IMG/VR virus record: IMGVR_UViG_2859810971_000002
Source of the DNA: a virus
Lineage: Duplodnaviria > Heunggongvirae > Uroviricota > Caudoviricetes
DNA length: 16,781 nt
Strand: one strand, 5' to 3'
Made by a program: the position numbers. Position 1 is the stretch's first letter, and every line of letters starts with the position of its first letter. This document shows, piece by piece, positions 9,001 to 12,000 of the stretch.

Positions 9001-12000
9001 CTGATACTTTGCCGATTTTGTACGTGATGGCAAAAGCAAACAAAACCCGCCCACAAGCGGGTTTTTTGTGCCACTTATCTCGGATAGACATGGTGAATGC
9101 GCTGGTGGAGGAGATAAGGGTGATTTTTGAATGCTTGCAACATTGATTTCGTAACGTTATTATCCTGCGCCCGGCCCTTTAGCTCAGTGGTGAGAGCGAG
9201 CGACTCATAATCGCCAGGTCGCTGGTTCAAATCCAGCAAGGGCCACCAACCGCCACTAGCTCATCAGGAAAGAGCGTCAACCCTTTAAGTTGAGTGTGCG
9301 AGGTTCGAGTCCCCGGTGGCGGTCCAGTGCCGACTTGGCTCAGTAGGTAGAGCAACTGACTTGTAATCAGTAGGTCACCAGTTCGATTCCGGTAGTCGGC
9401 ACCATATGCGGGCATCGTATAATGGCTATTACCTCAGCCTTCCAAGCTGATGATGCGGGTTCGATTCCCGCTGCCCGCTCCAGTTAGAGTCTTTCAGTCT
9501 GCGATGATGGGAAATCCCGGAGTGACTGAAAGACGTTTAAGTTATGAATGATCGCTTTTTTTTGCAAAATTGCTGTGCAGAAATACTAACCTTCGGGCAG
9601 GCGATCATTCATAAGCACTCTGCTTTTATTCCGATTAACTGTGAGTGGTTTGTTGGATAGAGTGCTTTCCTTACTGTATATATCGTTTCGCCCGCTTTTG
9701 CGGTTTTTTCTTTTCAAATCCCTTTCATTTCTCAGTGTAAAACTACGCCATCCGTTATTTGCGGAGGTGAGGCTATGAAATCCATGGACAAAATTTCAAC
9801 GGGCATTGCCTACGGCACCTCCGCAGGCAGTGCTGGCTACTGGTTTTTACAGTGGCTTGATCAGGTCAGTCCGTCACAGTGGGCTGCGATTGGTGTACTG
9901 GGGAGTCTGGTTCTGGGCTTCCTGACTTATCTGACAAATCTGTACTTCAAAATCAGAGAAGACAAGCGTAAGGCTGCGAGAGGTGAATAATGTCGCCATC
10001 ATTACGGTAAGCGCCCCATCAGCGACGTCTTGTGAAAATTGTCCTGTCTGGCAACAATCGCGCCCATCTATATTGATGGACACGAACGATGAATTCCCAG
10101 ACAACAAAAGATATTCCCTGCTTCCGTTCTTATTTGCCTGATGCCCTGCGTTTAAGATTTGAAGATAAACTGACCATCCGGGCCATCGCTCAGCGTCTGG
10201 GTCTCAGTCATTCCACAATACATACGCTTTTTCAGCGATTTCTTGCATCCGGTATCGCATGGCCATTGCCCGATTCAGTTTCATTCGCTCAACTTGACGC
10301 CATCCTTTATGCCAACAGAAAGAAGGAATTAACAGAGCCTCAAATCAGAGAAGGCTCATGGCGAAAAGAACGGCGAACCAGCTATAGCCGTGAATTTAAG
10401 GTCCGTCTGGCTAAGCAGGCGTTACAGCCTGGGGCTGTTGTTGCCCGGATCGCCAGAGAACACGATATCAATAATAACCTGCTGTTTAAATGGAAAAGCC
10501 AGTACGAGGACGGCTTACTGAGCGATGATGACATACAGGAATGCATGCCTGTCCCGGTGGCACTGACTGATACGCCGGAGCCGACCAGACCAGTTACAAA
10601 TCCCTTCTGGCGTAACAAGCATGATGAGCGCCCTGAGGGGGCTCCCGGAAACGTCCCACGGTGCGAGCTGCATCTTAAATCAGGTGTGGTAAAACTGTTT
10701 GACCCTCTCACTCCGGAACTGTTACGGGCGCTAATCCGCGAAATGAAAGGGGGTATCCGATGATAACGCTGCCGACCGGTACCAAAATCTGGATCATCGC
10801 TGGCATCACAGATATGCGTTGTGGCTTCAATGGCCTGGCTTCGAAGGTGCAGAACACGCTGAAAGATGACCCGTTCTCCGGGCATATCTTCGTCTTCCGG
10901 GGCCGCAGTGGCAAAATGGTGAAAATACTGTGGGCCGATCGTGACGGGTTATGCCTGTTCGCCAAACGTCTGGCCGGTGACCCGGGAAGGGAAAGTGCAC
11001 CTGACGCCAGCTCAGTTATCCATGCTACTGGAGGGGATCGCGTGGCAACATCCCAAACGGACAGAACGGCCTGGCATCCGGATATAACCCGTGATAAAAC
11101 AAGGGAATGAACAATGAACTCCCCGATGATATTGAGCTGCTTAAAGCCATGTTGCGTAAGCAACAGAGTCGGCTTCGACAGTATGCCTGTCAGGTCGCGG
11201 GCTATGAGCAGGAAATTGAACGGCTGAAAGCGCAACTCGACAGGTTGCGTCGTATGTTGTTCGGCCAGAGTTCAGAGAAAAAGCGTCATAAGCTTGAAAA
11301 TCAGATCCGACAGGCAGAAAAACGACTGTCGGAACTGGAAAACCGGCTGAACACAGCCAGAAATCTTCTGGAAGATGCATCGTCAGTCACAGATTCACCT
11401 GACACCAGTCCCCCGTCAGAAAACCCGATCGCCAGTAAGCCTGAATCCCCGGGACGAAAATCTTCACGAAAACCGCTGCCGGCAGAACTTCCCCGGGAGA
11501 CACATCGCCTTCTGCCTGCTGAAACCAGTTGCCCGGCCTGTGGAGGTGTTCTGAAAGAAATGGGGGAAACAATCTCAGAGCAACTGGATATCATTAATAC
11601 CGCCTTTAAAGTTATCGAAACCATACGTCCCAAACTGGCCTGTAGCCGGTGTGATGTCATCGTTCAGGCACCACTTCCTCCTAAACCGATCGAACGCGGT
11701 TATGCCAGTGCAGGGTTACTTGCACGGATCCTGGTCAGCAAATATATGGAACATATCCCTTTATATCGCCAGTCAGAAATATACGCGCGACAGGGCGTGG
11801 AGCTGAGCTGTAATACCATGGTGCGCTGGGTATCAGAAATGGCAGACAAACTCCGTCCTCTGTATATAGCGCTGAATGACTATGTTCTGGAGGCAGGAAA
11901 GGTGCACGCTGAGGTAGCCTGAGTTTAACGGACACTCCTTCCTGAAATAGAATGGCATCAGAAGGAGCTAATAATGAGCAGAAAAACCCAACGTTACTCT

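Follow-up and report, generated by a model that had tools for sequence, protein, structure and literature searches.

A four-gene tRNA array in the late region of a decayed lambda-like prophage, with an arginine-type tRNA carrying a UUU anticodon

The virus record IMGVR_UViG_2859810971_000002 (Caudoviricetes), analysed here over its whole length of 16,781 nucleotides (nt; 'the window'), carries four plus-strand tRNA genes at 9173-9482, between the gene for the Q antiterminator and the lysis genes of a lambda-like prophage. We read this array as a mobile tRNA operon of lambdoid phages, transcribed from its own promoter and lodged in the late region between Q, with its pR' promoter and tR' terminator, and the lysis genes; we put the probability of this reading at roughly 0.6. 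Overall it is an ordinary phage tRNA cluster. Its sole real interest lies in the second gene, where a phage tRNA-Arg appears to have been switched to a lysine anticodon, and in the possible role of that tRNA as one to which tRNA-cutting nucleases are blind. The four genes, as called by ARAGORN and scored with the Rfam tRNA model, are:

9173-9248, + strand: tRNA1, tRNA-Ile2 (anticodon CAU, ileZ type); Rfam 72.5 bits
9250-9326, + strand: tRNA2, atypical, anticodon UUU (nominally Lys) on the scaffold of argN (Arg-UCG); Rfam 44.4 bits
9329-9404, + strand: tRNA3, tRNA-Thr (UGU), a copy of thrU with the change A9G; Rfam 72.5 bits
9408-9482, + strand: tRNA4, tRNA-Gly (UCC), an exact copy of glyT; Rfam 64.9 bits

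These coordinates match exactly those of the initial annotation, which had described four tRNA genes with 1-3 nt spacers between the Q region and the lysis genes. The spacers are A, GT and TAT (1, 2 and 3 nt), and the CCA end is encoded in all four genes. All four scores (44.4-72.5 bits; E-values from 1.6e-14 to 9.1e-07) lie above the gathering score of the model, 29, and by this measure no member of the array resembles a pseudogene, a concern that the initial annotation had itself raised. Minimum-free-energy folding of the four tRNAs and argN was uninformative, as even the genuine thrU and ileZ gave no cloverleaf, and we therefore relied on the covariance-model scores.

The second gene, flagged as atypical from the outset, aligns over its full length with argN of Shiga toxin (Stx) phages, with 12 differences; its scaffold is unrelated to those of lysT and of the phage T5 tRNA-Lys, with which it was also compared. 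Three of the differences (U33C, C35U and G36U) are clustered in the anticodon loop, which reads CCUUUAA (C32-C33-U34-U35-U36-A37-A38) in tRNA2 versus CUUCGAA in argN. The UUU anticodon is the main determinant for lysyl-tRNA synthetase. Other features of tRNA2 are C1-G72, U73, an A51xC63 mismatch and A20, which is retained in a GGAAA D-loop. Because A20 is an Arg-type feature, belonging to the identity set of arginyl-tRNA synthetase, the direction of the switch would be from Arg to Lys. The spacers on either side of the UUU gene (A and TTATCGGTATTCT) are the same as those of argN in the classic array, so that synteny, too, supports the orthology of the two genes. A shifted loop, with UUA or CUU as the anticodon, was considered and dropped, since UCAAC/GUUGA pairs as a 5-bp stem and encloses a standard 7-nt loop in which UUU occupies positions 34-36. 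On sequence grounds, then, the second gene is a clear, synteny-supported case of an Arg-to-Lys anticodon switch.

Shifts of this kind between alloacceptors, or tRNA remolding, have been described in eukaryotic and mitochondrial genomes (PMC3923123, PMC4783518). As there, an anticodon substitution shifts the decoding identity while the scaffold and synteny of another acceptor family are kept. The present case differs in that the carrier is a temperate phage, the predicted shift is from Arg(UCG) to Lys(UUU) by two anticodon changes plus U33C, and the case is known from its sequence.

The array as a whole is evidently a derivative of the Stx-type cluster ileZ-argN-argO (933W, Stx2a type), and it is common and already annotated. 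It has the same position after Q, a homologous upstream promoter region and an identical ileZ, with tRNA1 matching ileZ of Stx2a_F349 at 76/76 positions; tRNA2 is the positional orthologue of argN, and identity over 9120-9326 is 91%. The layout running from Q and pR'-tR' to a late gene (stx or lysis) also recurs in 689R5, PhiR47_1 and Stx2a_F349. The differences are that the second gene reads UUU here instead of the UCG of argN (loop CUUCGAA to CCUUUAA), that the third gene, argO (UCU), is replaced by Thr(UGU) and Gly(UCC), and that lysis genes stand where the stx genes would be. Thus, the claim that the array is not the usual Ile/Arg set of Stx-type phages holds for argO, which has given way to Thr and Gly, but not for the promoter, tRNA1 and tRNA2, which are homologous to the Stx promoter, ileZ and argN.

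Intermediate and classic forms were found in a comparison of 123 sequences that share the T-arm of tRNA2 (at least 120 IMG/VR loci, the window and two reference phages). Among the matches listed, the Ile-Lys(UUU)-Thr-Gly form is in the majority (93 of 123), 12 viral contigs have ileZ-UUU-argO, and seven have the classic Stx type, ileZ-argN(UCG)-argO. The other 11 are variants that lack one or two tRNAs, some of these loci ending inside the array, or that have an extra tRNA-like gene downstream. In two IMG/VR loci a fifth tRNA-like gene, 82 nt long, follows about 800 nt downstream of tRNA4; ARAGORN calls it Val(aac), and it has an argN-like acceptor stem and T-arm but an aberrant anticodon arm. 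Judged from the sequences, the anticodon switch was the first event, in which the loop of argN (UCG) would have become C33-UUU; in the second, host thrU and glyT, copied precisely and without flanks, would have taken the place of argO.

The full-length array is present in 506 of 5,426 complete Escherichia coli genomes (~9%), where the Prokaryotic Genome Annotation Pipeline (PGAP) annotates its members as Ile, Lys, Thr and Gly. Three isolated phages, 689R5, 606R7 and PhiR47_1, also carry it, and the UUU gene is found in 798 of the same 5,426 genomes. A 19-mer spanning the T-arm and acceptor of tRNA2, searched against 185,579 species-representative genomes, matched only E. coli, Shigella flexneri and seven sequences in unrelated phyla. 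A query across the thrU/glyT junction was not used for counting because the separate thrU and glyT matches of the host were merged into a single location. Our literature searches on ileZ/argN/argO and on lambdoid Lys/Thr/Gly tRNA arrays found no description of the array. Phage tRNA clusters are well known, and with identical copies already annotated in hundreds of genomes, this one is no discovery in itself.

Several sites around the array bear on how it would be expressed:

9135-9163, + strand: array promoter, a sigma-70 candidate (TTGCAA-17-TATTAT) from a consensus scan, ending 9 nt 5' of tRNA1
8963-8991, + strand: pR'-like late-promoter site (TTGCAA-17-TATATT) at the end of the Q gene, from the consensus scan (9/12 matches)
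9036-9071, + strand: tR'-like terminator candidate, a GC-rich hairpin followed by a T-run (inverted repeat 9036-9050/9057-9071, 87% complementary)
9483-9774, + strand: non-coding trailer from the array to the holin gene, within a contiguous homology to PhiR47_1 and 689R5 that spans 9135-9991

The array promoter is directly followed by the GC-rich stretch CCTGCGCCC. In related viral contigs, TTGnnn-17-TATTAT stands at an unchanged distance from tRNA1 in six diverged upstream types, with a varying spacer, and PhiR47_1 becomes homologous to the window precisely at 9135, that is, at the -35 hexamer. From this we infer that the mobile module includes a dedicated promoter of its own. The trailer is conserved and travels with the array (nucleotide diversity 0.016), and contains two perfect inverted repeats, 9489-9499/9524-9534 with 11-nt arms and 9542-9555/9601-9614 with 14-nt arms. 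A late-promoter site immediately after Q is the layout of lambda and of Stx phages. The terminator scan called 9036-9071 on the minus strand only; the plus-strand T-run, GGGTTTTTTGTG, was read off the sequence. Between the pR'-like site and the hairpin, 8994-9067 gives sub-threshold Rfam matches to the Salmonella prophage small RNAs isrK (22.5 bits) and isrJ (23 bits), and this interval may encode a short late-leader RNA.

Since the pR'-like site and the T-run hairpin lie upstream, the array of an intact phage would be read both from its own sigma-70 promoter and by Q-modified, antiterminated polymerase. In the window only the array's own promoter could act, because Q is dead: an in-frame stop interrupts it at 8600-8602, and its C-terminus is frameshifted relative to Q of phage 689R5. 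Spacers of 1-3 nt imply RNase P and 3' trimming, as in other tightly packed tRNA operons; RNase P would cut at each 5' end and 3' exonucleases would trim the other, yielding four mature tRNAs with encoded CCA.

The three remaining genes proved to be what the initial annotation took them for, namely an ileX-like tRNA and near-copies of host thrU and glyT. tRNA1 is 68/76 identical to ileX of E. coli K-12, is named tRNA-Ile by PGAP and has both C4-G69 and C5-G68, the reported determinants for TilS; it would decode AUA once C34 is modified to lysidine. tRNA3 matches K-12 thrU at 75/76 positions, the sole change being A9G, and tRNA4 matches K-12 glyT at 75/75. We also considered A9G as an adaptive escape change and rejected it, because most phage copies retain the host A9 and the site is no more than polymorphic: of the IMG/VR loci among the matches listed, 70 have A at position 9, 10 have G and 3 have C. 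The G9 allele of the window (position 9337) is common to the related remnants in S. flexneri SFBU1023, E. coli ECMA0423 and E. coli FDAARGOS_944. The acceptor stem of the phage-borne glyT copy has a compensatory C6-G67 to U6-A67 double change in 11 of about 100 copies in the IMG/VR loci among the matches listed, and nucleotide diversity is 0.003-0.007 in tRNA1, tRNA3 and tRNA4, two to five times lower than in the trailer. Both observations indicate constraint on the Thr, Gly and Ile genes.

Because thrU and glyT are (near-)identical to the host genes and run in the host order and orientation, we weighed whether the array might be an ordinary host tRNA operon or a piece of the thrU-tyrU-glyT-thrT-tufB locus. 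Between thrU and glyT the host has tyrU, set off by spacers of 8 nt and 116 nt, and thrT and tufB lie downstream. In the array thrU and glyT are 3 nt apart (TAT), under a phage promoter and among phage neighbours, and the window contains neither tyrU, thrT and tufB nor the host flanks. Alignment to the host locus, which the initial annotation had proposed as a check, shows only thrU and glyT copied, free of flanking sequence. Moreover, the array has its place between Q and the holin gene, isolated phages carry the same set, and tRNA1 and tRNA2 are phage genes. We rejected the host-operon explanation, which has practically no chance of being right, and the array is prophage-borne, as first claimed.

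What the phage would gain from tRNA1, tRNA3 and tRNA4 is well explained by codon supply. Comparing 49 annotated genes of the carrier phage PhiR47_1 with 42 K-12 genes, we found AUA enriched 2.6-fold (rank 5 of 61 codons), GGA 2.2-fold (rank 7), ACA 1.9-fold (rank 9) and GGG 1.9-fold (rank 10). Ile2 would read AUA, ThrU would read ACA, ACG and ACU, and GlyT would read GGA and GGG; these three minor-codon tRNAs would boost the supply of species that have one or two host genes, for codons that phage and imported genes use about twice as often. The remaining codons of the top ten are four rare Arg codons, served by argN and argO in the alternative array, and AGU and UCA, so that the Ile-Arg-Arg and Ile-Lys-Thr-Gly arrays jointly cover eight of the ten codons most enriched in a carrier phage, a clean case for codon supply. 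From the four-gene host operon the phage took only two tRNAs, both readers of minor codons. The codon-usage comparison suggested by the initial annotation gave AUA enrichment in the carrier-phage genes and an extreme use of rare codons in the ipaH open reading frame (ORF) of the window; in the latter, 47% of the Ile codons are AUA, and AGA/AGG exceed the K-12 sample 14-fold. Codon supply leaves tRNA2 unexplained, because Lys codons are not enriched in PhiR47_1 (AAA 1.1-fold, AAG 1.3-fold) and the host has at least five lysT-type genes.

For tRNA2 we therefore weighed a role in counter-defence. Its UUU anticodon is that of the targets of AriB, the nuclease of PARIS, and of PrrC, and of the secondary target of P2-OLD, whose foremost target is ThrU and which uses a paired CNG motif (PMC12445682). 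AriB needs U36AAUC|A41, and U39A, A41C or U16C impair or abolish cleavage (PMC12409363). At positions 36-41, tRNA2 has UAAGUU versus UAAUCA in host tRNA-Lys, and at position 16 it has C versus the host U. In addition, the change from G30-C40 to A30-U40 removes the paired CNG (CAG/CUG) motif. tRNA2 thus appears to lack all the features by which Toprim nucleases that cleave tRNA-Lys are known to recognize it, and should be a poor substrate for both AriB and P2-OLD.

Phages are known to use tRNAs in this way. Variant tRNAs of T5 rescue infection from PARIS (PMC12409363; PMC11464382), and phage tRNA-Lys genes rescue phages from PrrC (PMC11555353). Like tRNA2, the T5 tRNA-Lys combines the targeted host anticodon with altered positions 39-41 (GUU in tRNA2, ACC in T5, UCA in the host), and both have C16. 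Unlike tRNA2, whose Arg-type scaffold carries C33 and U73, it has a Lys-type scaffold with U33 and A73. Both resistance and rescue have been demonstrated for T5; for tRNA2, resistance is a prediction from sequence. A tRNA on a non-Lys scaffold could be invisible to nucleases that recognize host tRNA-Lys, namely PARIS AriB, P2-OLD and possibly PrrC. Tentatively, and with the odds somewhat against it, tRNA2 could thus be a Lys-decoding, nuclease-insensitive spare rather than a codon supplement. It is possible, if doubtful, that it is a working Lys tRNA, made from a switched phage Arg tRNA and expressed from the array's own promoter in ~15% of sequenced E. coli and in Shigella, that escapes PARIS AriB, PrrC and P2-OLD. 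The same doubt attaches to the idea that it would do so by virtue of a scaffold unrelated to host tRNA-Lys and of C33 at the PrrC-type cut site.

One could go further and regard the whole array as a counter-defence kit, in which extra Lys(UUU) and Thr(UGU) offset the depletion of tRNAs by PARIS, P2-OLD and HepS, defences that cut tRNAs and are active against lambdoid phages. This Lys-Thr pair comprises the two prime targets of AriB and jointly can rescue cells and phages from PARIS (PMC12409363), and the two genes adjoin in the array; ThrU is P2-OLD's main target in P2-lambda interference (PMC12445682), and HepS, which restricts siphoviruses, cuts Thr tRNAs too. Here, as with the phage tRNA-Thr(UGU) genes that rescue from P2-OLD, the gene is phage-encoded, and a lambda-like phage belongs to the class that P2-OLD restricts. 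The rescuing tRNAs, however, have altered CNG motifs and shortened anticodon stems, whereas tRNA3 keeps the host C28-U-G30/C40-A-G42; and this Thr gene, unlike the T5 variants, is copied from the host. Host ThrU, when over-expressed, protected little or not at all against P2-OLD. The literature searched contained no defence system that specifically targets Gly(UCC) or Ile2, and codon enrichment already accounts for Ile, Thr and Gly. We therefore consider this wider explanation unlikely.

A stronger rival is that Ile2, ThrU and GlyT work in codon supply while tRNA2 is a dead passenger, a mutated and non-functional argN. C33, U73, the A51xC63 mismatch and the lowest score of the array (44.4 bits) would fit such a gene, and tRNA2 is unannotated in the phage record 689R5. 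The low score, however, is a property of the scaffold and no sign of decay, since argN, which has the same A51xC63 mismatch, scores 43.0 bits. Five of the 12 differences from argN lie in stems and none breaks a pair: U7C, U70C and G43A each turn a G-U into a Watson-Crick pair, and G30A with C40U is a compensatory double change. Standard pairs stay at 20 of 21, as in argN, Watson-Crick pairs rise from 17 to 20 of 21, and the pair count is kept in only 1.6% of random sets of 12 substitutions (p about 0.016). The three clustered loop changes give a clean UUU within U36-A37-A38; among the matches listed, about 115 copies of tRNA2 all have UUU and C33, and position 32 is the only one in the loop that varies. 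The spread of the UUU form over 798 genomes likewise argues against a dead gene. By the usual marks of a canonical tRNA, tRNA2 has a cloverleaf above the Rfam threshold but lacks the U33 of the U-turn.

Other observations weigh against our own account of the array, some of them in favour of the passenger explanation. tRNA2 is the least conserved of the four genes, with a diversity (0.018) about equal to that of the non-coding trailer, and damaged alleles are frequent, among them a T12 deletion and U8C together with C4T and C11T. In E. coli genomes H74-H79, PGAP calls the 100% and 98.7% alleles tRNA-Lys, and two others go unannotated, one with the T12 deletion (97.4%, PPompW type of O157) and one of 96.1%; such D-arm-damaged alleles are common. 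Decoding and lysylation may be poor, because C33 replaces the near-universal U33 and U73 replaces the A73 of tRNA-Lys. Most of the features that would make tRNA2 insensitive (G39, U41 and C16) were inherited from argN and did not newly evolve. In the Thr and Gly copies the anticodon arms are still those of the host, CNG/CNG motif and UAAUC|A included, so both would be expected to be cleaved as the host tRNAs are; with the failure of over-expressed host ThrU, this makes a role in defence unlikely for them. As for codon supply, rare-codon enrichment is generic for phage genes, and the most enriched codons (AGG, AGA and CGG) are those whose tRNAs the array lost. We regard the passenger explanation as about as doubtful as the working, nuclease-escaping Lys tRNA, and retain the mobile, self-promoted operon as our reading of the array.

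The surrounding features of the window place the array in the remnant of a lambda-like prophage:

6870-7928: DUF968 gene, upstream of the array
7929-8294: rusA gene, upstream of the array
8285-8974: Q antiterminator gene (Pfam Phage_antiter_Q), upstream of the array
9775-9990: holin S gene of the P21 type, downstream of the array
3369-4409, - strand: integrase gene, abutting tRNA-Ser(CGA)
3252-3341: tRNA-Ser(CGA), called by ARAGORN
2185-2260, - strand: tRNA-Asn(GUU)
6097-6422: sok antisense RNA (Rfam 118.9 bits), overlapping an ORF of 70 aa
13829-15283, - strand: ipaH-type ORF of 484 aa with leucine-rich repeat (LRR) and NEL E3-ligase domains
15599-15778: Shigella chromosomal small RNA CssrB, a full-length match (Rfam 230 bits)
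16535-16738: IS009, a full-length match (129 bits)

This prophage is defective and decayed. Besides the dead Q gene, it has ORFs for insertion sequence (IS) transposases of the IS3 and IS66 families at 10089-13650, which cut the lysis module; since these begin about 100 nt past the holin gene, the endolysin and Rz genes are missing. The tRNA-Ser(CGA) gene is likely the attachment site of the prophage, and the sok locus is, by its sequence, a toxin-antitoxin locus of the hok/sok type within the remnant. Related remnants are found in S. flexneri SFBU1023 (99% over window 9133-13170), E. coli ECMA0423 (97-99% over 2105-10728) and E. coli FDAARGOS_944 (99.8% over 8200-10006), and in all three the four tRNA sequences are identical to those of the window. 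In the FDAARGOS_944 remnant, Q is likewise frameshifted.

Because the array has its own conserved, predicted promoter, it could be expressed even from dead prophages such as the ipaH-associated remnant described here, where it may aid the translation of AT-rich virulence genes. If tRNA2 is indeed a Lys tRNA that escapes cleavage, escape tRNAs carried by prophages would be widespread among enterobacteria in nature and could weaken the abortive-infection systems of their hosts. A working tRNA2 would also extend the idea of counter-defence tRNAs from virulent T5-like phages to temperate lambdoid phages, and would offer a simple system in which to test it.

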